NCBI GenBank assembly: GCA_046269625.1
Contig: JBJURY010222185.1
Coordinates: 1-64,000, forward strand
From: Hausera hauseri
Lineage: Eukaryota
Reading direction: 5' to 3'
Length of the DNA stretch: 64,000 bases
A model generated the notes under the pieces. It saw only the letters and a program-made list of their open reading frames with translations, was not told the DNA's origin and searched no databases. The position numbers and the translations under genes were made by a program. Of this stretch, positions 14,303 through 62,952 are shown piece after piece (position 1 is the stretch's first letter; each line of letters opens with the position of its first letter).

Positions 14303-16754
14303 CTTCAATCGAGCGGAGCTCGAGACGCTGCTTAAGAGCGTCGACATGCTGGACGAGCAGGAGTTGACCGAGATCGAGCGGATGCTCGAGGAATTGGACA
14401 AGCGTGCCACGCTGCAGGCTGCCAGAGACGACCTGATTGCCTTCTGCAAGTACATGGACCCCCACTATAAGGTGGGTCGGCACCATAGAATCCTCGCGGA
14501 TCAGCTCATGGCCATCGAGGCGGGGGACAAAGACAGGGTCTGCGTCAACATTCCACCCCGTCACGGCAAGTCTCAGCTCGTCTCCACATACTACCCGGCG
14601 TGGTTTATCGGCAGAAACCCGGGAAAAAAGGTCATGTTGGTGTCCCACACCACTGATCTGGCCGTGGATTTCGGTCGTAAGGTGCGAAACCACATCGACT
14701 CGGACCCATACCGGGATATTTTCCCGGCGACGGCCCTCTCAGCGGACTCAAAGTCGGCTGGGCGGTGGAATACGACCACGGGATGCGAGTTTTACGCCAC
14801 CGGCGTGGGTTCGGCCCTCGCGGGCCGCGGTGCAGACCTGCTCCTCATCGACGATCCGCACTCAGAACAGGACATTTTGAACGGAAACTTCACGGCTTTC
14901 GACAAAGCCTACGAGTGGTTCGCCTTCGGTGCCCGGACGCGTCTGATGCCGGGAGGGCGCGTAGCGGTGGTGCACTGTATGACCGGCGATACACCTGTTT
15001 TGATGGCTGATGGCAGCGAAAAGCCTCTGCAGGACGTACGTCCGGGAGACATGGTAGCCTCGTTTGAGGGCGGCGCACTGTTTGGGCGTAAGGTTATCAA
15101 CTACCAGTCAAACGGTATTGATAGCATCTTTACAATCAAGATGACCTCAGGTAGAGTTGTCCGGGCAAACGCGAGGCATCCGTTCCTTGTCGTTAGAGAG
15201 GGGGCGTTGGAATGGGTGCGCCTGAGCGGCTTGAAGACGGGCGATACCGTTGTGTCACTGACGGATGCCAACAACCTTCTCGATCCAGCACAAAACGCGG
15301 TAAGTGTCAGCGGTGTCAGTCTATCGACCACTACCACCGAAAGCACCCCGATGCCCCCTACCGGGGTGTCGGCCACCACGGGAAATGGAAAGGGATCGCC
15401 TGCTCCGTTGACGGGTGTGAAGAGCCCGCGGCGGCAACCGGCCTTTGCACCGGACACTACAACAAGCAGAAGTGGGAAAGCGGAAAATACCGCCGCAGTG
15501 CCGCTGCGAACCGTGACGCCCACCTCAAACATCGGTACGGCATCACGCTGGATGAGTATCACCGGCTTCTTGCGGAGCAGGGTGGCGTCTGCGCGGTCTG
15601 TAATGAGTCCCCTACTGAGAAAAACACTCGCGCGCATTGGAACAGCAAGCTCTGCGTGGACCATTGCCACGATTCGGGGCGGGTCAGGGCCCTACTGTGC
15701 AACGACTGCAATCTCGCTGTCGGCTATGCAAAGACCGAGCGAACCGCTCTGGCAGTTGCAGAGTATATACGCACTCACACTCGACCCGATTCTTGAGGTA
15801 ACGCCTTCTGGTGAGGCCGAGGTGTTCGATATTCAGGTCGAACGCAGTGAAAACTTCATAGCCAATGGTCTCGTGAGCCATAATACAAGATGGCATAAAA
15901 AAGACCTCACGGGGCGGCTGATCCAAGATATGGCCAACAACGAGGACTCCGACCAGTACGAGGTGGTGGAGTTCCCGGCGATTCTCGAGGTCGAGGACAA
16001 AAATACGGGTGAAATCGTCCAAAAAGCCCTCTGGCCGGAGTTTTTCGACCTTCCGGCGCTCATCCGCACCAAGGCGTCCATGCCTGTGTTCCAGTGGAAC
16101 GCGCAGTATCAGCAGAATCCGACGGGCGAAGAGGCGTCAATCATCAAGCGAGACTGGTGGAGACTGTGGCCGGACGAGGACCCGCCGCACGTAGAGTACA
16201 TAATCATGTCTCTCGACGCCGCTGCAGAGGCAAACAACCGTGCCGACTTCACGTCGCTGACCACGTGGGGTGTGTTCTTCAATGAGGAGGAGAACAACCA
16301 CCAGATCATCCTGCTCAACGCCATAAAGAAGCGCATGGAGTTCCCGGAGCTCAAGGCTCTGGCCATGGAGGAGTACCGCGAGTGGGAGCCTGATGCCTTC
16401 ATCGTCGAGAAAAAGAGCTCGGGGACGCCCCTCTATCAGGAGATGCGGCGGGCTGGGCTCATGGTGCAGGAGTACACACCGGTCAGGGGGTCTGTGAACA
16501 ACCCCAACAGCAAGATGGCCCGTCTGAACTCCGTATCCGACATTATCTCCTCCGGGATGGTCTGGGTGCCGCCTAAGCGCTGGGCGGAGGAGCTCGTGGA
16601 AGAAGTGGCTGGGTTTCCCTTCGCCGAAAACGACGACCATGTGGACACTATGATTATGGCGCTCCTGCGGTTCCGTCAGGGGGGGTTCATTCGTCTGGAC
16701 ACCGACGAGCCGGACGAGGAGCTGCCTTACCGGCGGCGAGTTGATTACTACTAA
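14274..16754 (+). CDS. terL: terminase large subunit, intein-containing
   Basis: PPRHGKS Walker A, LLLIDDP Walker B, H-TRWH coupling motif, C-terminal nuclease with DDHVD; GGGAGG RBS. Confidence 0.95.
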   Translation: MKMATESPTNFNRAELETLLKSVDMLDEQELTEIERMLEELDKRATLQAARDDLIAFCKYMDPHYKVGRHHRILADQLMAIEAGDKDRVCVNIPPRHGKSQLVSTYYPAWFIGRNPGKKVMLVSHTTDLAVDFGRKVRNHIDSDPYRDIFPATALSADSKSAGRWNTTTGCEFYATGVGSALAGRGADLLLIDDPHSEQDILNGNFTAFDKAYEWFAFGARTRLMPGGRVAVVHCMTGDTPVLMADGSEKPLQDVRPGDMVASFEGGALFGRKVINYQSNGIDSIFTIKMTSGRVVRANARHPFLVVREGALEWVRLSGLKTGDTVVSLTDANNLLDPAQNAVSVSGVSLSTTTTESTPMPPTGVSATTGNGKGSPAPLTGVKSPRRQPAFAPDTTTSRSGKAENTAAVPLRTVTPTSNIGTASRWMSITGFLRSRVASARSVMSPLLRKTLARIGTASSAWTIATIRGGSGPYCATTAISLSAMQRPSEPLWQLQSIYALTLDPILEVTPSGEAEVFDIQVERSENFIANGLVSHNTRWHKKDLTGRLIQDMANNEDSDQYEVVEFPAILEVEDKNTGEIVQKALWPEFFDLPALIRTKASMPVFQWNAQYQQNPTGEEASIIKRDWWRLWPDEDPPHVEYIIMSLDAAAEANNRADFTSLTTWGVFFNEEENNHQIILLNAIKKRMEFPELKALAMEEYREWEPDAFIVEKKSSGTPLYQEMRRAGLMVQEYTPVRGSVNNPNSKMARLNSVSDIISSGMVWVPPKRWAEELVEEVAGFPFAENDDHVDTMIMALLRFRQGGFIRLDTDEPDEELPYRRRVDYY
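14976..15884 (+). mobile_element. intein in TerL (303 aa)
   Basis: H|CMTGDTPV block A, NARHPF block B, VFDIQV..ENFIANGLVSHN|T blocks F/G; removal restores VVHTRWH. Confidence 0.93.
15212..15796 (+). CDS. Endonuclease VII-type endonuclease overprinted in an alternate frame of the TerL intein
   Basis: YGITL.EY..L...Q.G.CAVC...VDHCH..G.VRALLC..CN..VG; GAGGGGG SD 7 nt before the ATG. Confidence 0.85.
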   Translation: MGAPERLEDGRYRCVTDGCQQPSRSSTKRGKCQRCQSIDHYHRKHPDAPYRGVGHHGKWKGIACSVDGCEEPAAATGLCTGHYNKQKWESGKYRRSAAANRDAHLKHRYGITLDEYHRLLAEQGGVCAVCNESPTEKNTRAHWNSKLCVDHCHDSGRVRALLCNDCNLAVGYAKTERTALAVAEYIRTHTRPDS

Positions 16755-17083
16755 AAACTATGCTACAAAATTTTTAGCGACGTTTTCGGCTCCTTGGCGT
16801 CGCTGTTGGGCGTGTATCTAATGTGGCCCGGTGTTTCTCCCCACCGGGCCATTTCTTTTTCAAAAAGGTGTTGCAGGGGCTGATCTTACCCCCTAAAAAT
16901 GTCTCCGAGGGGCGTACCAACTCAGAGATCGTCACGGGTCGGTTTGGTAGTGGTCGAGGATCAGACTGCGCTACGGCTTATCATCAACCGCGCCCCTCAC
17001 GACTCCTCCCGCCCAATGACTCCCCTCTTCCTATGCGGCGCACTTTGCTGCTATAGTCGCACAAACCTTTCAGGGGATATGCC

Positions 17084-19564
17084 ATGGCAATCGAGAAGCC
17101 GATGACGCCGTTCGAGTTTGGGCCGGGTGACGAGCCCGAGATCGAGGTGGCCATTGCCACGGACGAAGAGCCGGAAATCGAGATAGACACCGAGACTGGC
17201 GAGGTCACAATTGACTTCGGGGAGGGTGAGGACGATGAGAGCGAGGATATGACCGCTCACGATGCCAACCTCGCCGAAAGCATCGAGGATGGGGAGCTCG
17301 AAAGTATTGCAAGCGACCTGATCGAGTCGTTTTTGTCTGATCGCGACAGCCGCCGGGACTGGGCAGCCGCATATATCAGCGGTTTGGACCTCTTGGGCAT
17401 GAAGATCGAGGATCGCTCGCAGCCTTGGGCTGGTGCCTCCGGTGTCTACCACCCGATGCTGACCGAAGCCGTGGTGCGGTTCCAAGCGCAGGCTATGAGC
17501 GAGCTGATGCCCGCATCGGGCCCTGTGCGCACTAAGATCATGGGTAAACTGACGCCCGAGAAGGCCGAGCAGGCCCAGCGCGTGCAGACCGAGATGAACT
17601 ACCTCATCACCGAGGAGATGCCGGACTACCGGGACGAGATGGAGCAGATGCTGTTCCGCCTGCCGCTGGCCGGGTCCTCATTCAAGAAGACATACTACGA
17701 CCCCATCAACGAGATTCCAGTCTCCGTCTTTGTGCCCGCTGAGGACTTCGTGGTCTCTTACGGCGCGTCTAACCTGCGTGTCTGCCCGCGGTTCACGCAT
17801 GTGATGAAGAAGACCGACAATGAGGTCCGGGAGCTGCAGGTCGTTGGGTTCTACCGCGACGTCGAGCTGCCCGCAGCCGAGAAAGACCTCACCGACATCG
17901 AGGAGAAGTACAACGAGCTCGCTGGCGACTCTCAGACTTACGAGGACGACCCGCGGCGCACTATCCTCGAGATGCACGTAGACATCGACCTGCCGGAGCC
18001 GTTCGCGGACGAGAAAGGTGTAGCACGTCCCTACGTCATCACCATCGACAAGACCTCTAAGATTGTCCTCGCCATCCGCCGTAACTGGAAGGAAGACGAC
18101 GCCAAGAAGCGCAAGCTGATGCACTTCACGCACTATCCCTACCTGCCGGGGATGGGGTTCTACGGCACGGGTCTGATCCACCTGATCGGTGGTCTGGCTA
18201 AGTCCGCCACATCTATCCTGCGCCAGCTCATCGACGCGGGCACGCTGTCTAACCTCCCGGCGGGTCTCAAGGCCCGCAGCCTGCGTATCAAGGGCGACAA
18301 CACCCCGCTGATGCCCGGCGAGTGGAGGGACGCTGACGTGACGGGCGGCACGCTCCGCGAGAGCCTGTTCCCGATGCCGTATAAGGAGCCGTCGAGCGTC
18401 CTGTACACCCTGCTGGGTAACGTGGTCGAGGAAGGCCGCCGCATCGGCTCCGTGGCCGATATCCAAGTGGGTGACATGAGCGCAAACGCCCCCGTGGGCA
18501 CCACGCTGGCCCTGCTGGAGCGTAGCCTCAAGGTCATGTCTGGGGTTCAGGCCCGCCTGCACGCCGCGATGAAACAGGAGCTGCGCATCCTCGCGCGGAT
18601 CATCCACGACCACATGCCCGAGCAGTACGCCTACGAGATGGACGGTGACTTCAACCGCATCGAGGACTTCGATGGGCGCGTGGACGTGATCCCGGTCTCC
18701 GACCCTAACGCCGCCACCATGGCGCAGCGGATCATGCAGTATCAGGCCGCCCTGCAGCTCTCGCAGCAGGCTCCGCAGCTCTACGACATGGGTAAACTGC
18801 ACCAGCAGATGCTCGAGGTGCTGGGTATCCAAGACGCCGCCGACATCATTAAGCTGCCCGAGGACATCAAACCGATGGACCCGGTGGCCGAGAACATGGC
18901 GCTGCTGCAGCAGACCCCGGTCAAAGCGTTCCTGTATCAGGACCACGAGGCACACATCGCGACCCACATGGCTGCGATGCAGGACCCGAAGATCGCCCAG
19001 ATGGTCGGCCAGTCACCGTTTGCACCGGCAATCCAAGCCGCTGCCATGTCCCACATCACCGAGCACCTCGCCTATCAGTACCGCAAGGAGATCGAGATGA
19101 CTCTGGGCGTTCCGCTGCCGCCCGAGGGCGAGCCGCTGCCTGAGGATGTCGAGGTCCAGCTGTCTCGCATGGTCGCGCAGGCTGCCGCCAAGCTGTTCAA
19201 CAAGAACGTGGCAGAGGCTCAGCAGGCTCAGGCCGAGCAGCAGGCTCAGGACCCGTTGACGATCATCCAGATGAAAGAGCTCGAGCTCAAAGAGAAAGAG
19301 CTGGATCACAAGATCGACATCGACAACAAGAAGCTGCAGGTCAACGCAGCGACCAGCACTGGGAACCTCTACATCCAGCAAGAGCGTGTCGAGAGCGAGA
19401 ACGAGCGGTCCGCGGCAAACACCATGGCAAAGATCGCCACGGACGCCGCTCGCGAGAACGTCAAGGCGCAGATGGACGGCACTCGCCTCGCCATCGAGGC
19501 TGCCCGGGTGCTCCAAGAGCGCAACAAGCCCCCGGCTCCCGCGCCCAAGGTTGAGGGTCAGTGA
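17084..19564 (+). CDS. portal protein
   Basis: 826 aa following TerL; PWAGASGVYHP and GFYG.GL motifs seen in podovirus portals. Confidence 0.85.
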   Translation: MAIEKPMTPFEFGPGDEPEIEVAIATDEEPEIEIDTETGEVTIDFGEGEDDESEDMTAHDANLAESIEDGELESIASDLIESFLSDRDSRRDWAAAYISGLDLLGMKIEDRSQPWAGASGVYHPMLTEAVVRFQAQAMSELMPASGPVRTKIMGKLTPEKAEQAQRVQTEMNYLITEEMPDYRDEMEQMLFRLPLAGSSFKKTYYDPINEIPVSVFVPAEDFVVSYGASNLRVCPRFTHVMKKTDNEVRELQVVGFYRDVELPAAEKDLTDIEEKYNELAGDSQTYEDDPRRTILEMHVDIDLPEPFADEKGVARPYVITIDKTSKIVLAIRRNWKEDDAKKRKLMHFTHYPYLPGMGFYGTGLIHLIGGLAKSATSILRQLIDAGTLSNLPAGLKARSLRIKGDNTPLMPGEWRDADVTGGTLRESLFPMPYKEPSSVLYTLLGNVVEEGRRIGSVADIQVGDMSANAPVGTTLALLERSLKVMSGVQARLHAAMKQELRILARIIHDHMPEQYAYEMDGDFNRIEDFDGRVDVIPVSDPNAATMAQRIMQYQAALQLSQQAPQLYDMGKLHQQMLEVLGIQDAADIIKLPEDIKPMDPVAENMALLQQTPVKAFLYQDHEAHIATHMAAMQDPKIAQMVGQSPFAPAIQAAAMSHITEHLAYQYRKEIEMTLGVPLPPEGEPLPEDVEVQLSRMVAQAAAKLFNKNVAEAQQAQAEQQAQDPLTIIQMKELELKEKELDHKIDIDNKKLQVNAATSTGNLYIQQERVESENERSAANTMAKIATDAARENVKAQMDGTRLAIEAARVLQERNKPPAPAPKVEGQ

Positions 19565-19752
19565 TGGAGGATACCATTTTCGCCTTTCTGCTCCGCAACA
19601 TCGCGGAGCAGAAAACAGCTCTCGAGCTGCACCTCGCAACGGGCGGTGCCAAGACCTACGAGGACTACTGCCGTAGCACCGGTGAGTATGCTGCGCTACA
19701 GCGCATGTATGATGACATTAAAGACCTAGAGAAAAGATTTATTGCGGATTGA
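19564..19752 (+). CDS. small conserved protein
   Basis: coupled to the portal stop; L.TGGAK.YEDY....G. Confidence 0.6.
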   Translation: MEDTIFAFLLRNIAEQKTALELHLATGGAKTYEDYCRSTGEYAALQRMYDDIKDLEKRFIAD

Positions 19753-19831
19753 TACCATCCGCTATACTTCTTTGAGCTACGCGGATGTCCCGCGCAAGGC
19801 GCTGTGAGCCTCAATCACTGCAGGAGGAACT

Positions 19832-20200
19832 ATGTATACGGCTAACAAAGTCGACGACGAGCAGCTAAAGGCTAAGCTGCCGGAACCCTCGGGATACAGG
19901 CTCTTGATCGCCGTCCCAGAGGTCAGCGAGAAAACCGAAGGTGGAGTCTACATGCCGGACCAGCTGAAAAAGGCTGAGGAAACGGCGTCCATCATTGGTT
20001 TCGTGGTCAAGTCTGGCCCTGATGCCTACGCTGACCTGAACAAGTTCCCCAACGGGGCTTGGTGCAAAGAAGGCGATTTCGTCATTTTCCGCTCCTACTC
20101 CGGCACCCGCTTCAAGGTAATGGGGAAGGAGTTCCGTCTCATCAATGACGACACCGTCGAGGCTGTTGTCGAAGACCCACGGGGGTATAGCCGCGCATGA
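19832..20200 (+). CDS. GroES-like co-chaperonin
   Basis: P.GYRLLI, KTEGGVY.PD, G.VVK.GPDAY, GDFVIF..YSGT, RLINDD.VEAVV. Confidence 0.85.
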   Translation: MYTANKVDDEQLKAKLPEPSGYRLLIAVPEVSEKTEGGVYMPDQLKKAEETASIIGFVVKSGPDAYADLNKFPNGAWCKEGDFVIFRSYSGTRFKVMGKEFRLINDDTVEAVVEDPRGYSRA

Positions 20201-21123
20201 CCGACAAGAACGATGACATCGAAGTCGACGTCGAAGGCGACGACGAGCTCGAGATCGAGGTTCAGGACGATACCCCTGAACCCGACAAAGGTAAGCCGAA
20301 AGCTGCTGAGGTAGAGACTGAGACGAAGGGCGCGGATGACGACGACTTGGAGGGCTACTCCGACAGCGTCAAGAAGCGCATCAACAAGCTCAAGTTCGAC
20401 CAGCACGCTGAGCGCCGGGCCAAAGAAGAGGCAATTCGTCTCCGTGAGGAGGCCATTTCCTACGCGGAGAAAGTCCGTAAGGAGAACGAAGAGCTTCGCA
20501 AGGCTTACGCCGAAGGCGAGACTGTCCTCGTAGGGCAGACCAAGGCCCGTCTCGAGAGCGAACTTACCGCGGCGCGCACCGCGTACAAGCAGGCTTACGA
20601 GAGTGGTGACGCCGATGCTGTGCTCGCCGCGCAGGAGAAGCTGCTCAAGCTGCAGGTCGAGAATGACCGGGTGCAGAACTACAGGCCGCGCGCCGCGCAG
20701 GCCACCGCACCGGCTCCCGCTGCACAGCAGCAAGCCGCTCCGCAAGTCCAAAAGCCCGATGATCGGGCTATGAAATGGGCCGAGAAAAACGCTTGGTTCA
20801 TGAAGGACAAGGCCATGACGGGCTTTGCTATGGGCTTCCACGAAGACCTAGTATCGCAGGGCGTTGATCCGCAGAGCGATTTGTACTATTCTAAGATAGA
20901 CGAAGCGGTTCGCCGCACGTTCCCAGACAGGTTTGACGACGGGCATATTGAGGAAAAAGCACCCCGACGTCAGACTGGTACCGTGGTCGCCCCGGCTGCT
21001 CGCAGCACGAAAGCACCGCGCAAGATTGTGCTAACCTCCTCCGAGGCCGCTCTCGCCAAGCGCCTTGGTGTGCCTCTCAAGGTATTCGCGGCGCAGAAGC
21101 TAAAGGATATGCAAAATGGCTGA
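20197..21123 (+). CDS. putative capsid scaffolding protein
   Basis: acidic N-terminus, coiled coil, C-terminal LT.SE..LAKRLGV; lies between portal and capsid. Confidence 0.65.
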   Translation: MTDKNDDIEVDVEGDDELEIEVQDDTPEPDKGKPKAAEVETETKGADDDDLEGYSDSVKKRINKLKFDQHAERRAKEEAIRLREEAISYAEKVRKENEELRKAYAEGETVLVGQTKARLESELTAARTAYKQAYESGDADAVLAAQEKLLKLQVENDRVQNYRPRAAQATAPAPAAQQQAAPQVQKPDDRAMKWAEKNAWFMKDKAMTGFAMGFHEDLVSQGVDPQSDLYYSKIDEAVRRTFPDRFDDGHIEEKAPRRQTGTVVAPAARSTKAPRKIVLTSSEAALAKRLGVPLKVFAAQKLKDMQNG

Positions 21124-21562: not shown

Positions 21563-21600
21563 TTGCCGTGAACTGAAACTGTAGATGAAGGAGAGAACCT

Positions 21601-22200: not shown

Positions 22201-22212
22201 GGAGGGCTGACA

Positions 22213-23171: not shown

Positions 23172-23256
23172 ACCATAAGCGATATAAAGCTAGAGTATTA
23201 TGTTGACCCCACGTCTTTTGTTTTATATCTATACTTTACCAACACAGGAGCTCGCT

Positions 23257-24192
23257 ATGTCCGTCATTTATCAGATCACCAATATGCTTACCGGGGACTT
23301 CTATATCGGTAGCGCGCAGTCATTTGCCCGCCGGGAGTGGCAGCACCGTTACGCTCTCAAGCGCAACGAGCATAAGAACCCCCACATGCAGTCCTCGTGG
23401 AACAAGTATGGGGAGGAGGTATTTGTCTTCGAGGTACTCGAGGAGGTGCCAGATGAAGAAGACGTCCTCGCGGCGGAGAACAAGTACCTCCATAAGCATG
23501 TTGGGCAGCACAACTGCTTCAATGTGAACAAGGACGCTCTTGCCCCGAGGCTCGGGCAGGTCATGACCGCCGAGTCCAAGGCCAAGCTTAGCGAGAGCAG
23601 GAAGGGCAAGGGCGCGGGCGAAGAGCATTACCGGTACGGCCAAGAAGTATCCGCAGAGGTACGTGCCAAGATCAGTGAGACACAAAAAGGCCGCCAGAGC
23701 CCGATGAAGGGCAAGAAGATGTCCGAGCAGGGGCGAGCCAACGTCGCAGCCGCCGTGACGCGCGGCGCAGATTCGCACTTCTATGGGAAGCGCCCAGCGA
23801 GCGCTGACGAATTGCAGAAGGCAATCACGGCGCAGTATTCGGACGGGCGGCAAGAAACTTACCCTAGCTTGACACACATCCGCGATACATTTGGTGTGTC
23901 GCTTATGACGACTATCCGGGCATGCAAGAGCGGAAACCGTGTGGAGCGCGGGGCTTTTGCGGGGGCACTCATGTGGTATGCAGATTCTGAAAAACCCGCT
24001 TTGGCAGATGAACAAGTCCCCGCAGAGTACGCCGATCTTCCGCGCACGCGAACTGAGGCTAAACGTCTTGGGGCTAAGAAGTACTTTACTGGGGAACCGT
24101 GCACGCATGGCCACGTAGCGCCCAGATACACTAAGGGTATGTGCGTAGCCTGCGCGGCAGAGGGGCAAAGAGCTAGGGCTCGTAAGCTCTAG
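23257..24192 (+). CDS. GIY-YIG homing endonuclease with NUMOD3-like repeats
   Basis: VIYQITN....FYIGSA; R...H...L....H.N...Q..WNKYG; ESKAKLSES/EVRAKISE repeats. Confidence 0.85.
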   Translation: MSVIYQITNMLTGDFYIGSAQSFARREWQHRYALKRNEHKNPHMQSSWNKYGEEVFVFEVLEEVPDEEDVLAAENKYLHKHVGQHNCFNVNKDALAPRLGQVMTAESKAKLSESRKGKGAGEEHYRYGQEVSAEVRAKISETQKGRQSPMKGKKMSEQGRANVAAAVTRGADSHFYGKRPASADELQKAITAQYSDGRQETYPSLTHIRDTFGVSLMTTIRACKSGNRVERGAFAGALMWYADSEKPALADEQVPAEYADLPRTRTEAKRLGAKKYFTGEPCTHGHVAPRYTKGMCVACAAEGQRARARKL

Positions 24193-25580: not shown

Positions 25581-25835
25581 ATGGCCAAAACACCAGCATG
25601 GACTCGCAAAGAGGGGAAGGACCCGAAAGGGGGCCTCAATGCAAAAGGGCGGGCGTCCGCCAAGGCTCAGGGTATGAACCTTAAGCCTCCGGCACCGAAC
25701 CCTAAGACCAAGAAGGACGCAGCGCGGCGCAAGTCGTTCTGCGCCCGGAGCGCAGGACAGATGAAGATGTGGCCTGACGCTGCTAAGGACCCCGATAGCC
25801 GCCTGAGAAAAGCGAGGAAAGCATGGAACTGCTAG
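25581..25835 (+). CDS. small basic protein
   Basis: AWTRKEGK.PKGGLNAKGR...RRKSFCAR...W.C. Confidence 0.7.
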   Translation: MAKTPAWTRKEGKDPKGGLNAKGRASAKAQGMNLKPPAPNPKTKKDAARRKSFCARSAGQMKMWPDAAKDPDSRLRKARKAWNC

Positions 25836-26320
25836 GAGAGCGTTGGGTCGATATCCACGGCTACGAGGGTCGCTACGCAGTTAGCGACCACGGGCGCGTC
25901 AAATCTTTGTCGCGGTTCCGTCGCGGTAAGTCTGGCGGCATGGTGCCTGTTCCGGAAAAAATTATGCGACTGACCGCCAAGAAGCGTTCCGCAAACGGCA
26001 GAACACTACCATACCTTGAGGTAAAACTGCGCGACGGCTCCCCTCGAGATGTTCGGTGTACGTCCTTTTTGGTGCATCGACTGGTGGCACAGGCGTTCAT
26101 TGGAGAGCTTTTCGACGGCGCGCAGGTTGACCACATAGACGGGGACCACTCAAACAACCACTGGGGAAACCTTCGCATTTTATCCGCAAGGGATCACGGC
26201 CTGCTCCACCCATGCATTGCGGATCGAGCAAAAAACTCTCAGATGCAGGCGGCGGCTCAGGCAAAAATCATCGAGCTTCGCGCCTCCGGTGCCATTGTGG
26301 GAAAGCGGAGAGTGTGCTGA
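25823..26320 (+). CDS. NUMOD4/HNH homing endonuclease
   Basis: W.DI.GYEGRYAVSD.GRVKS; VHRLVA.AF...VDHIDGD..NN...NL. Confidence 0.85.
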   Translation: MELLGERWVDIHGYEGRYAVSDHGRVKSLSRFRRGKSGGMVPVPEKIMRLTAKKRSANGRTLPYLEVKLRDGSPRDVRCTSFLVHRLVAQAFIGELFDGAQVDHIDGDHSNNHWGNLRILSARDHGLLHPCIADRAKNSQMQAAAQAKIIELRASGAIVGKRRVC

Positions 26321-39663: not shown

Positions 39664-40281
39664 ATGCCTACGTTTGTTGACCGTACAGGGGTTCGGTACG
39701 GGAGGCTCACAGCGCTCACAATCGCTGGGAAAACTGCGGCTAAGAAAACCCTGTGGCGCTGCGCCTGCGATTGCGGGAAAGAGGTGCTCGTAGACGCCTG
39801 TAGGCTACAGACAGGGAATACGACCTCGTGCGGGTGCTATCTGAAAGACCGGATAACCAAGCACGGAGGTACAGGGAAAGGCTCATATAACACGTGGCGT
39901 GCAGTGGTGCGCCGGTGCACAAACCCGAACGATAAAGACTACTACCGTTACGGCGGTATGGGGATCACCGTGTGCGCGGAATGGTTGGACTATCCGCGGT
40001 TTAGGGCGGACATGGGGGAGCCCCCGACCGATGGGCATAGTCTTGACCGCATAGACCCTTGCGACGGGTACAGCAAAGCTAACTGCCGCTGGGCAACCGC
40101 CCTTGAGCAGAATCGGAACATACGTAGCTTTGGAAAAGCTCGCGGGGTATCCCTCCGAGGTAATAAATGGTATGCAATTATTGGGGTGAACAACCGACAG
40201 ATATATTCGCGGGGGTTCGACACTAAAGAGGAAGCTATGGCTGAACGGCAGCGGCAAGAACAGCTATATTGGAGCTCGTAA
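39664..40281 (+). CDS. HNH homing endonuclease with C-terminal AP2-like domain
   Basis: WRC.CDCG, YGG.GI.VC.EW, SLDRID...GY...NCRWAT; RGVS....KW.A.I......Y..GFDTKEEA. Confidence 0.85.
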   Translation: MPTFVDRTGVRYGRLTALTIAGKTAAKKTLWRCACDCGKEVLVDACRLQTGNTTSCGCYLKDRITKHGGTGKGSYNTWRAVVRRCTNPNDKDYYRYGGMGITVCAEWLDYPRFRADMGEPPTDGHSLDRIDPCDGYSKANCRWATALEQNRNIRSFGKARGVSLRGNKWYAIIGVNNRQIYSRGFDTKEEAMAERQRQEQLYWSS

Positions 40282-54874: not shown

Positions 54875-54943
54875 TCTACCTGTTGGGATGCCGCGACGAG
54901 GTGAGATTGTTTTTATCCCCCGTCGCGGCGAGCCTATCTAGGA

Positions 54944-55858: not shown

Positions 55859-55869
55859 GTGGGTTCTCC

Positions 55870-56091: not shown

Positions 56092-56516
56092 TACTTCTTC
56101 CTCACAGTAATGACGTATTCGCTGTCCGAGTTGAGCCCCGGGGGCAGCACGTCAGGGTTCTCTTCAAGGAACTGCTTCACCACAGTCTGATTGAGGCGCT
56201 TCTCGTAGAACTGCGGGACCCCGTTTTCCAAGATGAACTTGTTCATCGAGTCCCAGTCGTTGGTCCAGTAGCGCGTCTTCATAGTGCGGTAGAACGTCCC
56301 GGCGGGGGTGCGGACGCTGTCGATGCCCTGCGTCTTGCAGTAGTCGAGCAGCTCCGACTTGAGGGCATTGAGCTGCATCTCCAAGACTTCATCCCGCTGC
56401 TCGAACTCTGCTTTGAGCTCGGCCCGCTTGTCGCGGATTTTGATGTAGGTCTTGGTCAGCTGCTCAGGGGTGAGAGCGGAGCCGCTCTCGGTGTCAGTGT
56501 CGGTGTCGGTAGGCAT
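56091..56516 (-). CDS. conserved replication-region protein
   Basis: YIKIRD coiled coil; SVRT.AGT; DW....FI. Confidence 0.7.
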   Translation of the reverse strand: MPTDTDTDTESGSALTPEQLTKTYIKIRDKRAELKAEFEQRDEVLEMQLNALKSELLDYCKTQGIDSVRTPAGTFYRTMKTRYWTNDWDSMNKFILENGVPQFYEKRLNQTVVKQFLEENPDVLPPGLNSDSEYVITVRKK

Positions 56517-56566
56517 AGTGGTTCTCCTTCACTATCAGAATTTGATATTTAGTGATATCCGTTACA

Positions 56567-58981
56567 CTAGTCAAGCAATTCCTTATACAGGTCGACGACC
56601 TTGGTATGCACGTCGATCTTCTCGTCGAGCAGCTTGTAGACCCGGCGCTCCACGCCAGAGCCCTGCAGCTGGACCACGGTGCACTTATTGACCTGCCCCT
56701 TGCGGTGCACCCGGGCGTTAGCCTGTGCGTAGGTCTCGAGCGAGGATGTCGGTGCCCACCAGACCACCGTGTTGGCCGCCGTTAGGGTCACGCCGTGCGC
56801 CGCAGCCTGCGGCTGGATGACCAGCACCCGAGGATCGGGCTGCTCTTGGAACTGCTTGAAGATCGAGGTCCTCGCTCCGGCGCTCACCTCGCCGCTGATG
56901 ACGGCGTTAGTAATACCGTCCTTGGCCAGCTGCTCCGACAGCATATTGATGACGTGCTTGAACGGTACGAACACCAGCACCTTGTGGGTGCTTTCGGCGA
57001 TGACCTCTTTGAGAACGCTGTAGCGGTTGCCGATGTCGAACTGCACCGTGTCGCCGGATTCGGTATAGCTTGCGCCCGCTGAGATTTGCAGGAGCTTGCC
57101 CATCATCACAGCCGCGTTGACCGCGGTGATCTGCTCACCGGCCACTTCCATGACCATCTGGTTCTTGAGGCGCTTGTAGTAGAGCTCTTGCTGCTTCGTC
57201 AGCGCGACGTCCCGCTTGACGTAGACCATGTCCGGCAGGTCGAGGCACTCGTCCTTGGTGTAGCGGATGGCAGGCTGCAGGGCGCTATGCACGGTGCGCT
57301 CGGAGTTCTCCTTGGGCTTCCAGCGATACTGGGAGACCTTATACATCACCATGTCTTTCCAAGCGTTGAAGAACTTGGGCACGCCCGCCGGGTTGACCAG
57401 CTTTGCCAAGCCGTAGGCGTCCTCGGGCCCTTGAGCCGCAGGGGTGCCGGTCATCATCCAGAGCCACATGTCGGGCTTCACCAACGAGTTCAGCACCTTC
57501 CAGCGCTTGCTCTGGGCGTTCTTGTAGTGGCTGCAGTTGTGCACTAGGTGGGCGTTTTCCCCAACAAAATAGTTAGGCGTTCCACTAACTTCGAGGTTAT
57601 AGACGTATTCGTCACATCTCGGTTCGCGATACGTAACACTGTCCACCCGAGCTCCGAAAGTTTTTCCATTTTCCGCCGATCCCGCTCCTGACCTTTCGTC
57701 GTGCGGTGGCTGTTTCCATCCACTTCCAACCCAAGTTTCTTCTCCGGCCACGCGAAGTCGAGCTTGTAGTTCGTAGGATAGCCGGGCTGCCTCTTTCCCA
57801 ACGCTACTGGGAAGTTCCATATCCAACCAACCGGAAGCTGCGACGACACCAATACCTCCGCCGCTGTTAGGCCCGTACCGTTCCCACCCCGAACCACTGG
57901 ACGAATCCCCTTCGCTTTCGCCACATCCGATAGATGCGCACGCTGCTCCGACGTCCGGTGAAACCCAGCGCGAACCCCTTTCGCCCTCTGCTCTTGCGTC
58001 AAGGATTTCAGTGCTGACTGACCCGGATGCAGGAGGTGCCATCTCTTCCGAGCGCAGGATCGAGAGCAAGACGTCCCCGTGCTCGACTGATGTTTCCGAT
58101 GAAACCGCCACTTCCGCATTATCACGGTGTACTGCGTTCCGCATATCGGACAAGCCAGCAAAACTGACAAGTCGTCTACCCGCAATAGCTCTGGCGGGAA
58201 CCCAACCCCAGTCAGTGAAGAAAGGATGTTCTGGAGTGCAGGTGATAATTTCTCCGGTTTCAAGTTTCACCTCCACCAGCCTGTTAGGCTTCCGCTTGGA
58301 CACCGTTTTTATATTACGTACCCCGTCACTTGCAAACACAGTGTCTCCGAGGGCCAAAGTTTCTATGGCCACCGGCCCGTTGGGGGTGTGCACGGGGGTG
58401 CCTGCGACAAAGCACTCGTCAACGATGATGAGGTCGTAGCCCGCAGCGGCGATATCATCCCGTACGATCTCTACACCGTCGTAGTTGATAATGAGGAACT
58501 CGGGCTTCCCGGCGATGATCTTCCGGCGCTTGTCGGCGGTGCCGTGAGCGATACCCACCGTGCGGTGCATGGCGAAGGTGAACAGGTCTGCATGCCACGC
58601 ACTGTCCATGATCGAGAGCGGGCAGATGACCATGGCACGCTTGATGATGCCCTGCTTCATGAGGAAGTCCGCAGCCCAGATCGCGCTGGCCGTCTTGCCG
58701 GTCCCGGCTTCGTTGAAGCAGAACGCCTTCTGGTTCATGGTCAGGAAGGACGCCGTCGTGCGCTGATGCGCCATCGGAGCGAACTTACCCGTCCAGTTGT
58801 AGCGGCCCTCGATGGGCGACGGCACCTTGATATTCAGCCCCCGCAGGGTGTGCGTCTCGGGCACGCCCCAGTTCACGATGACCTCGTGCTCGCTGATCGC
58901 CTTGCTCTTCGGGATGACCGTAGTGACTTGTTTTGGATTGCGTAGCTTGAGAAGCAACGCTTTACCGTCGATGATCTGCAT
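56567..58981 (-). CDS. SNF2-family helicase, intein-containing
   Basis: GTGKT, INYDG, IVDE|CSH, MTGTP, HGVTLT, QANARVHR.GQ. Confidence 0.92.
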   Translation of the reverse strand: MQIIDGKALLLKLRNPKQVTTVIPKSKAISEHEVIVNWGVPETHTLRGLNIKVPSPIEGRYNWTGKFAPMAHQRTTASFLTMNQKAFCFNEAGTGKTASAIWAADFLMKQGIIKRAMVICPLSIMDSAWHADLFTFAMHRTVGIAHGTADKRRKIIAGKPEFLIINYDGVEIVRDDIAAAGYDLIIVDECFVAGTPVHTPNGPVAIETLALGDTVFASDGVRNIKTVSKRKPNRLVEVKLETGEIITCTPEHPFFTDWGWVPARAIAGRRLVSFAGLSDMRNAVHRDNAEVAVSSETSVEHGDVLLSILRSEEMAPPASGSVSTEILDARAEGERGSRWVSPDVGAACASIGCGESEGDSSSGSGWERYGPNSGGGIGVVAASGWLDMELPSSVGKEAARLSYELQARLRVAGEETWVGSGWKQPPHDERSGAGSAENGKTFGARVDSVTYREPRCDEYVYNLEVSGTPNYFVGENAHLVHNCSHYKNAQSKRWKVLNSLVKPDMWLWMMTGTPAAQGPEDAYGLAKLVNPAGVPKFFNAWKDMVMYKVSQYRWKPKENSERTVHSALQPAIRYTKDECLDLPDMVYVKRDVALTKQQELYYKRLKNQMVMEVAGEQITAVNAAVMMGKLLQISAGASYTESGDTVQFDIGNRYSVLKEVIAESTHKVLVFVPFKHVINMLSEQLAKDGITNAVISGEVSAGARTSIFKQFQEQPDPRVLVIQPQAAAHGVTLTAANTVVWWAPTSSLETYAQANARVHRKGQVNKCTVVQLQGSGVERRVYKLLDEKIDVHTKVVDLYKELLD
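57536..58414 (-). mobile_element. intein in helicase motif II (293 aa)
   Basis: DE|CFVAGTPV block A, TPEHPF block B, VYNLEV..TPNYFV...LVHN|C. Confidence 0.93.
57544..58263 (-). CDS. Vsr/DUF559-like PD-(D/E)XK endonuclease overprinted in the helicase intein
   Basis: CPIC...CSRSC, then YKLDFAW...KLGLEVDG.SH...D..K...L...GWTVLRI; GGAGG 6 nt before the TTG. Confidence 0.8.
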   Translation of the reverse strand: MKPEKLSPALQNILSSLTGVGFPPELLRVDDLSVLLACPICGTQYTVIMRKWRFHRKHQSSTGTSCSRSCARKRWHLLHPGQSALKSLTQEQRAKGVRAGFHRTSEQRAHLSDVAKAKGIRPVVRGGNGTGLTAAEVLVSSQLPVGWIWNFPVALGKRQPGYPTNYKLDFAWPEKKLGLEVDGNSHRTTKGQERDRRKMEKLSELGWTVLRIANRDVTNTSITSKLVERLTILLGKTPT

Positions 58982-59010
58982 GTCGTTCTCCGTAGGTGTT
59001 AGGGTTTACC

Positions 59011-59268
59011 CTAACCTTTGTTCTTGCCGGGCTTGTGACCGTTCCGGCTGCGGTTCTTCGAGGGGCTCTCCAGCTTGTAGCCGTCGGCGTTGCTGCCGCC
59101 CTTGGAGAGCATCTTCTTGTGGCTCACATCCTTGCCGGTGCGGTCCACACCTTTCTTGTCCAGTGCGCGCCGTGCACGCTGCCGCTCCATGCGGTCCTCG
59201 TGCTCACCACGTTTCTTCTGCATCTGGTATTCGTGACGATAGGGGCGCGGCGACTTGGTGTACGGCAT
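59011..59268 (-). CDS. small basic HNH-like protein
   Basis: KDVSHKK.LSKGGSN......S.NRSRN. Confidence 0.6.
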   Translation of the reverse strand: MPYTKSPRPYRHEYQMQKKRGEHEDRMERQRARRALDKKGVDRTGKDVSHKKMLSKGGSNADGYKLESPSKNRSRNGHKPGKNKG

Positions 59269-59270
59269 GG

Positions 59271-59621
59271 CTAACCCGTGCGGTTGGAGGTATAGGTATT
59301 GTGTATAATACCACGAGCAAACTCCTCGCGCACCATCCGTCGTAGCTCTGTCATCTCTTCCCGTATCACATTCTTGACGAGGTAGTTCAGGTTGTTCTGA
59401 AACGCTGAGGAGTGCATGATCTGCAGAGCCAGCTCTTCCCGGGCCGTGTGCGCCGCGAAAGCTAAGTTGTCGCCCTCGATAGCTGTGTCGAGCACCCGGT
59501 GCGAGCCTATGGTGTCCGAGAACAAGAAGTCCTTGACAGCATGTGCCATCTTTTTCTGGATGTGCTGCTCCAGCAGAAGGGCGGTGTTAGCCGCCTCGTC
59601 CATGGATACCTCGTCGCTCAT
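59271..59621 (-). CDS. hypothetical protein
   Basis: ATGA coupling to the upstream nuclease gene. Confidence 0.55.
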   Translation of the reverse strand: MSDEVSMDEAANTALLLEQHIQKKMAHAVKDFLFSDTIGSHRVLDTAIEGDNLAFAAHTAREELALQIMHSSAFQNNLNYLVKNVIREEMTELRRMVREEFARGIIHNTYTSNRTG

Positions 59622-60289
59622 TTCCCACCCCCATGGTGTGCGCATTGCGTAACCGGACAGTGCTTTCGGCACAGTCCTGACGGTCGCGGGTTCCATACGT
59701 TGGTCTCGTGTGCCTTTTCCAAGGCGGCGTATTTCATCACCCACGGCTTCCACAGCACACCCTCGTCAGTCACCGAGTAGTCCTGCTTCACGATGTCGTT
59801 GGCGATGGTGAAGAGCAACGCGCCCTTCACCTTCTTGACCTGCGGGAAGTGCTTGAAGATGGCCAGCGCCATAACCTGCAGCTGCCCAACGTCGGCATAC
59901 TTCGCGCTCTTGCCAGTCTTGTAGTCCACGTAGCGGGCGGTGTCTCCGTTCACGATGACGAGGTCGCCGATGCCGCGGAACCACACGTCCTTATCGAAGA
60001 AGCCACACGGCTCCAGATCAGCGGTGAGGCCCATCTTGAGTTCGCAGTGCTTCTCCCCCGGCATAGCCGCAAGCCGTTCCATAGTGGCCTGCATGAACGA
60101 GAACTGCGGGGGCATGGGTTTGCCGTCGCGGATGAACTCCTCGCACGCCGTATGAAAGGACTTCCCGTATAGGGTTGCCTCGGTGTCCTTAAAGGGAAAC
60201 TCATTCAGCACGGTGACGTGGTAGAACTGCTTCGGACACTTTTCGAAGTTACTGATCTTGCTGAACGACCATGCACCGGCTCCACTCAT
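59618..60289 (-). CDS. Cas4/RecB-like PD-(D/E)XK exonuclease
   Basis: WSFS....FEKCP, G..FH, D.....DYKTGK, QL, C..HCP...C. Confidence 0.85.
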   Translation of the reverse strand: MSGAGAWSFSKISNFEKCPKQFYHVTVLNEFPFKDTEATLYGKSFHTACEEFIRDGKPMPPQFSFMQATMERLAAMPGEKHCELKMGLTADLEPCGFFDKDVWFRGIGDLVIVNGDTARYVDYKTGKSAKYADVGQLQVMALAIFKHFPQVKKVKGALLFTIANDIVKQDYSVTDEGVLWKPWVMKYAALEKAHETNVWNPRPSGLCRKHCPVTQCAHHGGGK

Positions 60290-62952
60290 TACGTCTCTCC
60301 ATAGTTCTTGCCGATTCCGGCTTCACAGTCGACGGGAAGGCCCTCGGCCCACGCGGGGACCCAGCGCATACACTCTTCGACGTAGGACTTGCACGCTTCG
60401 GCGTCGTTGTCAGGAACACAGCATACGATGCTGTCATGCACAGTCAACACAACTCTGTATTTTTTACTAATTCGCAGCATTTGCTCGCCGATGATAAGTC
60501 TCGCCAGCGCCTGCGTTACGTTCTCGACCACCTTCCCGCCGTAGATACGGGTGCGTCCTATGCGGGTTTTGTAGGAATACTCGATGCCGCCCTTCTCGTT
60601 CTCGGCCTCTTCCAGCTCGTCGTAGCGGATCAGCAGGCCGTTGGGCAGCACGATGCCGGGAGCGCGGGTATCCACGCTGAGAACACCGTCCTTACCGAAG
60701 GGCATAGCGTCACCCCGCACCATGTATCGCAGCATGATACCGGCCTGCTTCCACATGCCCGAGATCATGTCGTTGGTCTCACGGTAGATGCCGATGATCT
60801 TGGCCGCCTCGTTCTTGGAGATGTCCACGCCGGAGTTCTTGAGGGCCAGCTGGAACTTCTCACCGCCCATGCCATAGCCGCAATTATGAACGATAAGCGG
60901 CCCCGCAGCAGTCGCAACTGTGTATCTGTTCCTCGGCCCGGCGAAGGCGATGTCGTAGGTCATCAATCTCTGCCTGTAGGTCTGCGACGCGGCGCTTGTT
61001 TCTCGCGTTCTCAGACTTTGTGGCGAAGCGGAGGTTCCCCGGCGCATACCCTTTTTCGTTGTCGATTCGGTCAAGGTCCCGCGCGGGGTCGTCCCAGCCC
61101 TCCAACGTGAGCAAATATCGAAGAAACGCTGCGCGGTCCGCACGCCATACCGCGTATACTTGGATGCCACGCCCCCCGTAGTGTGAGTATATTGCACAGG
61201 TTGGGGTATGGCAGCGCGATATACAGGACCCAATGCGGTTGAGCAGGCGCTTTCGATGAGCGTCGTCGGGTAACACACTGCGGTACTTGAGCCATCGCTT
61301 ACTGTTACTAGCTTGCTTGGCGCAAGCATTGCAGCGTGTTGTGCGCCCAGCCTTGAGGTTAGCGCGGTCCACCATGCCCTCCCACCCGCAAGAGCAGCGG
61401 ACGACAGGGTGCCAGCCGGAACCAGATTTTTGTTGCCAATCCCGGACCTCGAGCTCGCCGAACGTAGCGCCGACTGGAAAAGGGAAGGGCTTGTAATTAC
61501 CTCGAACCACCCCCGCCACCCACGTTCCGTTAGAATTTCGTGGTCCGGTGTTGCGGCGACCCCCGAGAACCGGACCGTCTCCTTCACCCCTTGCGGCACT
61601 ACACCCTTGTGCGTTACCCATTCCTCACCATCCCATACCATATCCGTAACTGTAATATTTACGATAGGAACCCAACCACGTGGCGTCAACACTTTTGTAT
61701 CCGCAGCGAAGCAACCGAGTACCGTGGTCTTACCCACGAACCGCTGGTCCTTGGTCACGTCGCTCTCGGCTACACCATAGATCGCTGAGGCCATCTTCTT
61801 GTAGACGTCGCCCTTGGACGCAAAGGTCTGCACCACGTCGTCCTGCCCAGCCAGCCACGCAAGCATGCGTGCTTCGATCTGTGACGAGTCGGACTCGACG
61901 ATGCTGTAGCCCTCGGGCGCGATGATGCACTTCTTGAGCGCCTTGGCGTTAGGCCCCCGACTAGGGAGGTTCTGCAGGTTGATCTTGTCGTCACCGCCCC
62001 AGCGGCCTGTGTGAGCCGCGTAGTAGCGCACCGGGACAGGCAGCTTGCCCCGCCCAGCGATGTCGATGAACCGCTGTGTGCGGGTCTCCTCGAGCGTAGA
62101 CTTCACCCCGAGCCGTGCGGCAGCCAGCGCCTGCACCTGCGGGTCGTCATCTTCCAGCAGGTCCTTCATGCCCTGATCGCTCTTAGCCAGTGCGTAGGTC
62201 ATGTTGCCCGTGGTGGGGCTGATCTTCATGGGGCAGGGCACCCCGAACTTACCGAGCAGTGCGGCAAACTTCGGGTTCGACATGAGGTCGGCCTTGTCCT
62301 CGACGCCAGCAGACTTGAGCAGGTCTTCCTTCATCATCTGCGTCTTACTGAGGTGCTCCTCGAGCCGCTCCCGGTCCAGCTCCAACGTAGGCTCAGTGAA
62401 CATACGCAGGGTCAGGTCGATCAGCTTGAGCTCCGACTTCGGGAACCCCCGAGACAGCATGATGTTGAAGATGTCGTAGGTCAGGTCTACGTCATTGACA
62501 CAGTAGCGCCCGTAGGCCGACAGCTCTTCCGGCGTGAAGTCGTTGCGGCGTTTCCCCTTGGCGTCCAGCACCTCGGTGCCTTTCTCCCCTACCCCGTAGT
62601 TTTCGGCGAGAGCCTTGAGGCTGGCACTCTTCTCGACGCCGTGGATCGCACGAGCCATGCAGAGCGTATCGAACAGCACCTTCGGACGGATGCCGAACCG
62701 CCAAGACATGATCGCACCATCGAACATCATGTTGTGCGCCAGCACCGCAGAGTTGGCCCAGTCGTATGATGCCAGTGCTTGCTTGATCGCACCGTGCGTC
62801 CCGGTGATCCACGCAGTCTCGCCGTCGTTGACCTTCACCCCCACCCCAATGACTTGGAAGCGAGGGTCACGGATATATTCTTCCGTGGTGATCTTAGACA
62901 GCGAGTAGTCTTTGTCGTAGTAGGTCTCCGTGTCTATAGTAATTACGTCCAT
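60289..62952 (-). CDS. polA: family A DNA polymerase, intein-containing
   Basis: DTET exonuclease, HN..FD, HTGRW, NLQN, DSSQIEAR, GK..VLG|CGYG, TVHDS. Confidence 0.95.
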   Translation of the reverse strand: MDVITIDTETYYDKDYSLSKITTEEYIRDPRFQVIGVGVKVNDGETAWITGTHGAIKQALASYDWANSAVLAHNMMFDGAIMSWRFGIRPKVLFDTLCMARAIHGVEKSASLKALAENYGVGEKGTEVLDAKGKRRNDFTPEELSAYGRYCVNDVDLTYDIFNIMLSRGFPKSELKLIDLTLRMFTEPTLELDRERLEEHLSKTQMMKEDLLKSAGVEDKADLMSNPKFAALLGKFGVPCPMKISPTTGNMTYALAKSDQGMKDLLEDDDPQVQALAAARLGVKSTLEETRTQRFIDIAGRGKLPVPVRYYAAHTGRWGGDDKINLQNLPSRGPNAKALKKCIIAPEGYSIVESDSSQIEARMLAWLAGQDDVVQTFASKGDVYKKMASAIYGVAESDVTKDQRFVGKTTVLGCFAADTKVLTPRGWVPIVNITVTDMVWDGEEWVTHKGVVPQGVKETVRFSGVAATPDHEILTERGWRGWFEVITSPSLFQSALRSASSRSGIGNKNLVPAGTLSSAALAGGRAWWTALTSRLGAQHAAMLAPSKLVTVSDGSSTAVCYPTTLIESACSTALGPVYRAAIPQPVQYTHTTGGVASKYTRYGVRTAQRFFDICSRWRAGTTPRGTLTESTTKKGMRRGTSASPQSLRTRETSAASQTYRQRLMTYDIAFAGPRNRYTVATAAGPLIVHNCGYGMGGEKFQLALKNSGVDISKNEAAKIIGIYRETNDMISGMWKQAGIMLRYMVRGDAMPFGKDGVLSVDTRAPGIVLPNGLLIRYDELEEAENEKGGIEYSYKTRIGRTRIYGGKVVENVTQALARLIIGEQMLRISKKYRVVLTVHDSIVCCVPDNDAEACKSYVEECMRWVPAWAEGLPVDCEAGIGKNYGET
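60883..61713 (-). mobile_element. intein in PolA motif B (277 aa)
   Basis: LG|CFAADTKV block A, TPDHEI block B, TYDI...NRYTV.....IVHN|C. Confidence 0.92.
60884..61621 (-). CDS. HNH-type endonuclease overprinted in the PolA intein (start uncertain)
   Basis: CSCG...C..C, RC.......YGGRGI, LDRIDN.KGY.PGNLRFAT.SEN..N. Confidence 0.82.
   Translation of the reverse strand: MGNAQGCSAARGEGDGPVLGGRRNTGPRNSNGTWVAGVVRGNYKPFPFPVGATFGELEVRDWQQKSGSGWHPVVRCSCGWEGMVDRANLKAGRTTRCNACAKQASNSKRWLKYRSVLPDDAHRKRLLNRIGSCISRCHTPTCAIYSHYGGRGIQVYAVWRADRAAFLRYLLTLEGWDDPARDLDRIDNEKGYAPGNLRFATKSENARNKRRVADLQAEIDDLRHRLRRAEEQIHSCDCCGAAYRS

Follow-up and report, generated by a model that had tools for sequence, protein, structure and literature searches.

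Here we report three inteins of a tailed phage, inserted in the terminase large subunit (TerL), an SNF2-type helicase and DNA polymerase A (PolA), each of which contains a nuclease gene read from the same strand in another reading frame. They lie in a window of 64,000 nucleotides (nt), the whole stretch analysed, which comprises bases 1-64000 of a 66,073-nt contig (JBJURY010222185.1, assembly GCA_046269625.1, deposited as Hausera hauseri). Selection on the nested frames and the distribution of the elements among relatives indicate that these are very probably functional homing inteins whose nucleases are expressed separately.

The inteins and their nested nuclease genes

All three inteins begin with Cys1, carry a block B His and a terminal His-Asn pair, are followed by Thr or Cys at +1, and are inserted at a conserved extein site, exactly as the initial annotation had placed them. 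The elements are as follows.

14235..16754 (+): TerL gene with intein, 839 amino acid (aa) precursor; Terminase_6N, Terminase_6C and Intein_splicing matches
14976..15884 (+): TerL intein, 303 aa, C1...SHN/T, directly before the TRW motif, +1 Thr
15212-15796 (+): nested Endo VII-type nuclease open reading frame (ORF), 194 aa, +2 frame; Endonuclease_7, E 2.6e-18
56567..58981 (-): SNF2-type helicase gene with intein, 804 aa precursor; Pfam
57536..58414 (-): SNF2 intein, 293 aa, C1...VHN/C, in Walker B (DE/C)
57533..57535 (-): +1 Cys codon of the helicase C-extein
57544..58263 (-): nested Vsr/EDxHD-like (DUF559) nuclease ORF, 239 aa, +1 frame; DUF559, E 7e-9
60289..62952 (-): PolA gene with intein, 887 aa precursor; Pfam
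60883..61713 (-): PolA intein, 277 aa, C1...VHN/C, block B His within TPDH
60880..60882 (-): +1 Cys codon of the PolA C-extein
60884..61621 (-): nested His-less HNH-type nuclease ORF, 245 aa, +2 frame; PHROG HNH phrog_374, E 9e-28

Their insertion, motifs and predicted HINT fold place all three among class 1 inteins, the fold being drawn from hidden Markov model (HMM) matches for TerL and SNF2 and from a low-confidence structure model for PolA. The block B His lies within NxRH in the TerL intein and within TPEH in the SNF2 intein, both of which score above the Pfam Intein_splicing cut-off, and the motif flanking the TerL intein is the same as in TerL6-f of Chandler gp6. The PolA intein gave no Pfam intein match and a weak one to TIGR01445 (E 0.017); its predicted model, of low confidence, matches solved inteins (Foldseek best E 4e-4), with a middle predicted to be disordered (predicted local distance difference test score, pLDDT, below 50 across residues 73-251). 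The inserts stay open in frame, with the intein catalytic residues conserved. None of the three has the canonical bifunctional layout, in which the homing endonuclease (HEN) is in frame with the splicing domain, and their in-frame middles hold no LAGLIDADG-like motif. Those middles had been described as low-complexity S/T/A/G/R sequence; they are indeed rich in these residues (share of 0.50-0.59 vs 0.31-0.34 in the exteins), and their entropy (3.75-3.84 bits vs 4.13-4.18) indicates biased composition, not strict low complexity.

Each intein holds one long shifted ORF on the same strand, as claimed initially, and an all-frame HMM search assigned the TerL product to Endonuclease_7 and the SNF2 product to DUF559 in Pfam and the PolA product to a family in PHROG only, with no Pfam match. 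The ORFs had been thought confined to the middle of the intein; they begin inside or just past the N-terminal splicing region, and those of SNF2 and PolA end in blocks F/G. On the opposite strand, a Pfam scan found no match for ORFs 15101-15670, 60271-61110, 57086-57547 and 58127-58945 over the intein regions.

The nested TerL product scores 66.2 bits against the Endonuclease VII family (PF02945; cut-off 23.6), contains the CxxC...DH...CxxCN core, gives weak alignments to PDB sequences, and is 46-53% identical to proteins of phages Angelicage, Affeca, Keitabear and Phlyer that occupy the same frame at the same TRW-flanked site. The nested SNF2 product matches PDB entry 3R3P (I-Bth0305I) at E 0.003, and E136, D169, E180, D182, H186 and D195 are invariant among its relatives. 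These residues suggest a Vsr-like/EDxHD core as defined in PMC3384342, their assignment to positions of the EDxHD motif being our own reading.

The nested PolA product, first described as an HNH endonuclease, is not a canonical H-N-H protein. Its motif is D-R-x-D-N...Y...N, with Arg in place of the general-base His of the I-HmuI type in 9/9 sequences, and D184, R185, Y192 and N205 are invariant in the family. The residue spacing of this motif may be like that of the nuclease PacI. PacI, a His-Me finger nuclease, uses a loop Tyr in place of His (PMC5714182). PDB sequence searches with the PolA nuclease alignments returned no relevant match, a Foldseek search with the predicted fold returned no significant one (PacI at rank 26, E 1.1), and a second fold-search list was filled by matches to the C-terminal helix.

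Conservation, selection and putative expression signals

The nested proteins of the three inteins match 935, 40 and 736 phage records, and each of the 40 listed Vsr-type matches falls within a single annotated feature, which most records name a helicase. Every one of the 12 GenBank phage loci fetched shares the host gene type and the relative frame. The expectation that annotation would miss the nested ORFs was borne out in all 12 records, one of which has no annotation at all; elsewhere the ORF is annotated as gp39 of Sodalis phage SO-1 and P46 of APSE-1, both inside PolA inteins. Across IMG/VR and GenBank, intact inteins with the geometry kept were found at 80/83 TerL, 15/15 helicase and 11/11 PolA loci. 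Among 100 unique inteins, including those of the window, the nested ORF is intact in 99 and the intein frame is free of stops in all. Set aside before counting were 11 distant DUF559 loci without a long open host frame (L024, L026-L035), two loci with another host gene (L023, L025) and three TerL loci without a detected intein start; three TerL loci and one SNF2 locus missing a flank were left out of the extein counts given below.

Some of these loci have features of their own. L023 and L025 hold another intein at about 2001-2219, apparently in PolA and followed by S-S/A-DPVNL, with a much longer +1 Vsr-type nested ORF (an open frame of about 430-470 aa). The TerL-family inteins L129 and L139 end in Ser-Asn and lack the penultimate His. 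In L041 (G005:43192-44763) the nested PolA nuclease is cut short by a TGA; some 800 nt upstream, at an apparent break in the PolA frame, there is another D-R-type HNH ORF. A +2 Endo VII ORF also occurs inside a dATP/dGTP diphosphohydrolase gene (PF18909; L371:1007-1828 and 1156-1629, G007), with the host frame open and no intein motifs seen, as in the intein-less insertion of ShiLan type discussed below.

Selection separates the two frames. The most variable codon position changes from the third position of the intein in the splicing regions to the third position of the nested gene in the core. There, the ratio of nonsynonymous to synonymous polymorphism (pN/pS) is 0.25 (TerL), 0.27 (SNF2) and 0.18 (PolA) in the nested frame, and 1.39, 1.11 and 1.57 in the intein frame, as calculated from 21, 3 and 2 non-sharing pairs, respectively. 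In the splicing regions the pattern is reversed (0.10-0.32 in the intein frame). The nested frames are thus conserved by purifying selection, as had been predicted. Synonymous recoding of the nested genes would introduce 3-5 stops into the intein frames of the window (probability of none at most 0.03) and, across the families, 3.5-7.4 per sequence; none is seen in 96 unique inteins, in line with the dual coding proposed at the outset. Taken together, the frame-specific pN/pS and the stop-free intein frame mean that the nuclease is the selected frame of the core and that the linker is kept merely stop-free. The description of the nuclease as overprinted on the intein is therefore reversed for the core: there the nuclease is under selection and the intein linker is a passenger, and overprinting on the splicing blocks is limited to the leader and tail of the nuclease. 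The result is a clean natural case of dual coding over about 600-720 nt in which one frame is maintained only as stop-free. At codons 201-220 of the SNF2 intein (57755-57814, minus strand) conservation is unusually high in the two frames alike (0.89 and 0.89, eight relatives), which may be an effect of the search peptide or a nucleotide-level signal.

Putative signals for separate expression are found where the nested genes overlap the splicing domains. In the TerL family the predicted start is ATG or GTG at an xW pair 11-12 codons past the block B His in 72/72 unique inteins (67 ATG), with a conserved GG-rich Shine-Dalgarno (SD) site ahead of it; the E/K/Q codons at the xW site end in A in 53/56 cases vs 658/1041 in the background. 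In the window this ATG is made from intein Glu-Trp codons, preceded by an SD-like run at 15198-15204. The PolA start is ATG or GTG at WDGxEW in 13/14 inteins; in the window the ATG is again built from the Glu-Trp codons, and the TAA stop comes from the terminal His-Asn codons. Helicase inteins of the window clade have a TTG start with an SD of -7 to -10.6 kcal/mol in 9/9 cases (in the window, GGAGGTG at 58274-58268, with the stop within block G), and the nested start is apparently later in the more distant Vibrio, MR14 and phi673 inteins. Where leaders overlap splicing blocks they contain no stops, against an expected 23.6 (PolA) and 15.3 (SNF2).

Putative signals upstream of these starts in the window are listed here.

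15129..15157 (+): candidate internal sigma70-type promoter of the TerL nuclease, TTTACA-17-TAGAGT, from sequence conservation
15169..15190 (+): conserved 9-bp hairpin over TerL block B codons, where the nested mRNA is predicted to begin; 7/9 pairs in the window
58308..58336 (-): candidate internal promoter of the SNF2 nuclease, TTTGCA-17-TATAAA (TTTACA in close relatives), under the threshold of a stock promoter scan
61661..61689 (-): candidate internal promoter of the PolA nuclease, TTGACG-17-TATCGT, in block A codons

A sigma70-like site stands at a fixed distance before each start, with the -10 box 60, 45 and 50 nt upstream across the three families, and it ranks first in each family (scores of 10.3, 10.6 and 11.2; control regions at most 9.7). 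In the TerL family the consensus has chiefly the form of an extended -10, TGnTAnAAT. Synonymous sites are under additional constraint in TerL codons 41-80 (top-codon share 0.72 vs 0.37-0.44), and the Pro codon behind the block B His is CCG in 56/56. The TerL hairpin is 93% paired over 53 sequences, with three pairs altered on both sides; slid controls pair at 41-60%, and one slide gives a similar covariation score. Based on these observations, each nested gene probably has its own start, SD and probable promoter threaded through intein codons, which are the signs expected if, as first suggested, the nuclease is made as a separate protein.

A T4-type hairpin hiding the start was considered and rejected: folding energy around the starts is unremarkable against synonymous recoding (mean z +0.5, +0.9, -0.2). 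The TerL start region of the window can fold in this way (z -1.3), and a weak form of 5 bp is returned by RNAalifold (-1.0 kcal/mol); there is better support for the predicted 9-bp hairpin further upstream. Just upstream of the candidate TerL -35 box, at 15109-15122 (+), lies a conserved TCAA-N6-TTGA-like inverted repeat, whose Ser codon is TCA in 96% and whose Asp codon is GAT in 98% of inteins; it could be an operator.

Probable mobility, proposed mechanism and alternative explanations

Contigs from three other runs (X2, X3, X22) were compared base by base with the window, as contigs and not as raw reads. At about 98% identity, X2 and X3 lack the SNF2 intein and X2 and X22 lack the PolA intein, with the junction exact to the base; TerL lay beyond the region covered. 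No data set marked as RNA was among those listed with a matching stretch, and X22, which may be RNA, has the empty allele. Among extein relatives, inteins are present in 4/77 TerL, 3/79 SNF2 and 3/80 PolA genes (10/236). All ten carriers have the nested gene in the unchanged frame, and no mini-inteins or in-frame forms were found among the 236. Precise empty alleles and this occupancy fit homing, and the patchy spread is that of other non-canonical inteins with out-of-frame HENs. The residue at +1 in intein-free alleles is Ala in 76/76 helicases and 76/77 polymerases, and carriers have Cys (one Ser); the element must therefore supply its own nucleophile. On quick extein trees the carriers are scattered (3, 3 and 4 changes needed, with strongly supported branches forcing 2 each), and the helicase of the window is sister to a 98%-identical intein-free allele.

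Of 20 near-complete relatives, 10 chosen for one element and 10 by extein, one holds two elements and none holds three, and the ten chosen by extein give no match to any of the three; phage MR14 likewise carries two. Three elements together are thus uncommon, in a comparison for which the window itself was singled out for having three. The initial annotation had argued from three independent cases against chance. The recoding test supports its conclusion; the elements, being three widespread families common to distant phages, are old elements that met in one genome and not three local inventions.

We consider it likely that the element is a homing intein in which splicing and cutting are carried out by two proteins encoded in one stretch of DNA. 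The host gene would be translated through the intein, the HINT halves folding around a disordered passenger linker of about 150 aa before splicing out. A separate nuclease would be made from an internal SD and shifted-frame start codon, probably from its own sigma70-type promoter in splicing-domain codons. When a phage with an intein-free allele infects the same cell, this nuclease would cut that allele, and repair by recombination would copy the intein in, together with the +1 Cys codon required for splicing in the helicase and polymerase. The three old, widespread families would have been collected separately by a nuclease-rich genome. Whether homing inteins of this widespread aquatic phage group normally have out-of-frame nucleases (10/10 insertions, three sites), each a complete nested transcription unit with promoter, leader hairpin, SD, start and sometimes stop drawn from splicing-domain codons (Trp to start, His-Asn to stop), we judge to be evenly balanced. 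If so, production of the nuclease could be timed independently, as in early expression from inside a late packaging gene, and the element, which would supply the +1 Cys itself, could enter sites flanked by Ala.

Several points weigh against the two-protein reading. The SNF2 and PolA selection tests have just 3 and 2 pairs, and the extein trees cannot separate gain from loss. The promoter positions were picked post hoc among related sequences, so that shuffle P-values overstate the significance; the stock scan recovered the TerL and PolA sites and missed that of SNF2, and among 12 PolA inteins two have their best score, a weak one, at another place and some of the rest have a weak site. ATG is not enriched at PolA starts (8 vs 4, p=1), the PolA nuclease lacks a catalytic His and its chemistry has no support from any solved sequence, and the stop in the nested gene of L041 shows that decay occurs.

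As to origin, the simplest reading is that a free nuclease gene entered a mini-intein, as has been published for similar elements, and was tolerated where it left the intein frame without a stop. Free-standing relatives of the HNH type occur in the same genome (31-37% identity) and of the Endo VII type in related genomes (34-43%), and the Vsr-type family comprises 1,093 clusters (E of at most 1e-10), the top 150 of which are without exception of stand-alone length (117-342 aa). Descent, through indels that change the frame or through loss of a stop, from inteins with an in-frame nuclease or from the split inteins of "fractured genes" is the alternative that survives best, and we regard it as rather unlikely. 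In its favour, UvrD helicases P0001 and P0002 have an intein at DE/C with the same RGGNG-type DUF559 nuclease in frame, APSE-1 has a related D-R-type HNH gene nested in +1, not +2, in its P45 polymerase intein (L366:1931-2353), and nuclease ORFs overlap the C-terminal intein half (IntC) in fractured genes (PMC2677866). The stand-alone relatives of all three nucleases argue against it, as does the absence of in-frame or split forms among close relatives; no longer (fused) form of the PolA nuclease was found either, which is weak evidence from a search not extended to the TerL nuclease.

The nested nucleases might instead have been domesticated by the phage for junction resolution in packaging, repair or marker exclusion, and not serve intein homing. 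T4 Endo VII is a resolvase (PMC5714182) and a terminase-linked role was proposed for the brucellaphage TerL case (PMC4422536). Roughly 95% of extein relatives, including the 98%-identical sister allele, do without the elements, and the ten near-complete relatives chosen by extein match none of them, which makes such a role improbable.

A programmed ribosomal frameshift from the host frame, yielding a fusion of extein, N-terminal intein half (IntN) and nuclease, would suit frames that overlap on one strand, and phages use programmed frameshifts. We find it less probable still: no slippery heptamer is kept at one place (best 8/72 TerL, 3/14 SNF2, 4/14 PolA), several TerL relatives have a nested-frame stop immediately 5' of the ATG, and the SD and start codon are conserved. 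Finally, sequencing or assembly indels, the refutation the initial annotation itself had named, have next to no chance of explaining the frames; the probable source run was compared as a contig only (identical, 0 differences), but the homologs, with the same geometry at 12/12 GenBank loci, already refute an error that would need two compensating indels per intein in isolated phages and about 100 environmental inteins and cannot produce frame-specific selection.

The window (G+C 59%) encodes terminase, portal, major head, tail-fibre, endolysin, primase/helicase, SNF2 helicase and PolA proteins, and further contigs with a matching stretch mostly bear freshwater or aquatic metagenome labels. The window also holds five free-standing nuclease genes. 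Three encode D-R-type HNH proteins related to the nested PolA nuclease, one is of NUMOD4-HNH_3 type, and the fifth, GIY-YIG-NUMOD3, lies directly behind the major head gene.

991-1467 (-), 6523-7170 (-), 39664-40281 (+), 25823-26320 (+), 23200-24192 (+): D-R-type HNH, NUMOD4-HNH_3 and GIY-YIG-NUMOD3 free-standing nuclease genes
19832-20200 (+): GroES-like co-chaperonin gene, downstream of the portal gene

Comparison with known systems

Out-of-frame HENs in inteins, and the model of invasion by a free HEN, were already described by Gosselin, Arsenault and Gogarten in 2025 (10.1101/2025.01.02.630785), and the dual-coding class proposed in the initial annotation is therefore not new. They report Endo VII-like HENs in frame 3 of actinobacteriophage inteins, as well as antisense Vsr-like and LAGLIDADG HENs. 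Our elements share the defining arrangement, a nuclease ORF in another frame with the intein frame open. The TerL element is a member of that published family, with the same proposed origin; the phages named there, Angelicage, Affeca, Keitabear and Sedona, are the top matches of its nuclease. The PolA and helicase elements are further variants: in the parts of that paper covered, the Vsr-like HENs are antisense and the HNH ones in frame, whereas those of the window are both same-strand and out of frame. Those parts contain no analysis of promoters, starts or per-frame selection, which the present study adds.

Other single cases are known. The cyanobacterial dnaX intein of Phillips et al. 2026 (10.64898/2026.09.14.751524) has an out-of-frame LAGLIDADG gene, whose overlapping ORF is in +2 and is accompanied by putative SD motifs; dN/dS (nonsynonymous to synonymous substitution ratio) depends on the frame, and empty alleles coexist with occupied ones. 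It differs from ours in its cellular host gene, its nuclease family and in being a single element. A 2015 brucellaphage paper (PMC4422536) describes a same-strand, out-of-frame HNH gene in a phage TerL intein. SO-1 gp39 is a 40%-identical homolog of the PolA nested nuclease in the same +2 frame, in a region its record labels a "type I self-splicing intron", and the APSE-1 nuclease is in +1. These three cases were not analysed as a class in the sources covered. The homologous Chandler gp6 intein, which splices (Kelley et al. 2016, PMC5050341), contains the +2 ORF, and a Jerseyvirus paper mentions inteins, the portion consulted not describing a layout with a nested nuclease. Many phage inteins annotated as nuclease-less probably hide a nuclease, among them those in PolA of Salmonella phages such as Ent1; the PolA intein matches 143 Salmonella phage records, in one of which the frame was checked.

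Two related systems lack a continuous intein. The ShiLan domain (Arsenault et al. 2025, PMC11855218) hides a nuclease in frame 3 of a stop-free insertion and apparently homes. It has no splicing domain and no ribosome-binding site was detected in it, whereas in the window elements the intein removes the linker and the SD is conserved. ShiLan reportedly ends in TAAC with a frame-3 stop, and the nested PolA stop is the TAA at 60884-60886; that this shared TAA(C) ending is a trace of an intein past in ShiLan is speculation. Fractured genes (Dassa et al. 2009, PMC2677866) place a free Vsr-like/EDxHD nuclease, such as I-Bth0305I, between IntN and IntC as a separate ORF overlapping IntC, with hairpins upstream. 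Their intein is split over two genes, whereas the intein frame of our elements reads through.

In literature searches with poor coverage of subscription journals, we found no sense-strand +1 Vsr-type nuclease in a helicase intein; no fixed-position promoters, SD sites or starts inside splicing-domain codons; and no obligatory +1 Ala-to-Cys change or case of three in one genome. What seems new is that each hidden gene would have its own promoter and start signal in intein codons. In the parts consulted, the 2025-26 papers describe out-of-frame intein nucleases as rare and do not settle if, or by what route, these are expressed. That question can be tested directly with the three families, in which candidate expression signals are conserved, and with harmless models that can be cultured (Chandler on M. 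smegmatis, phi673 on C. glutamicum).

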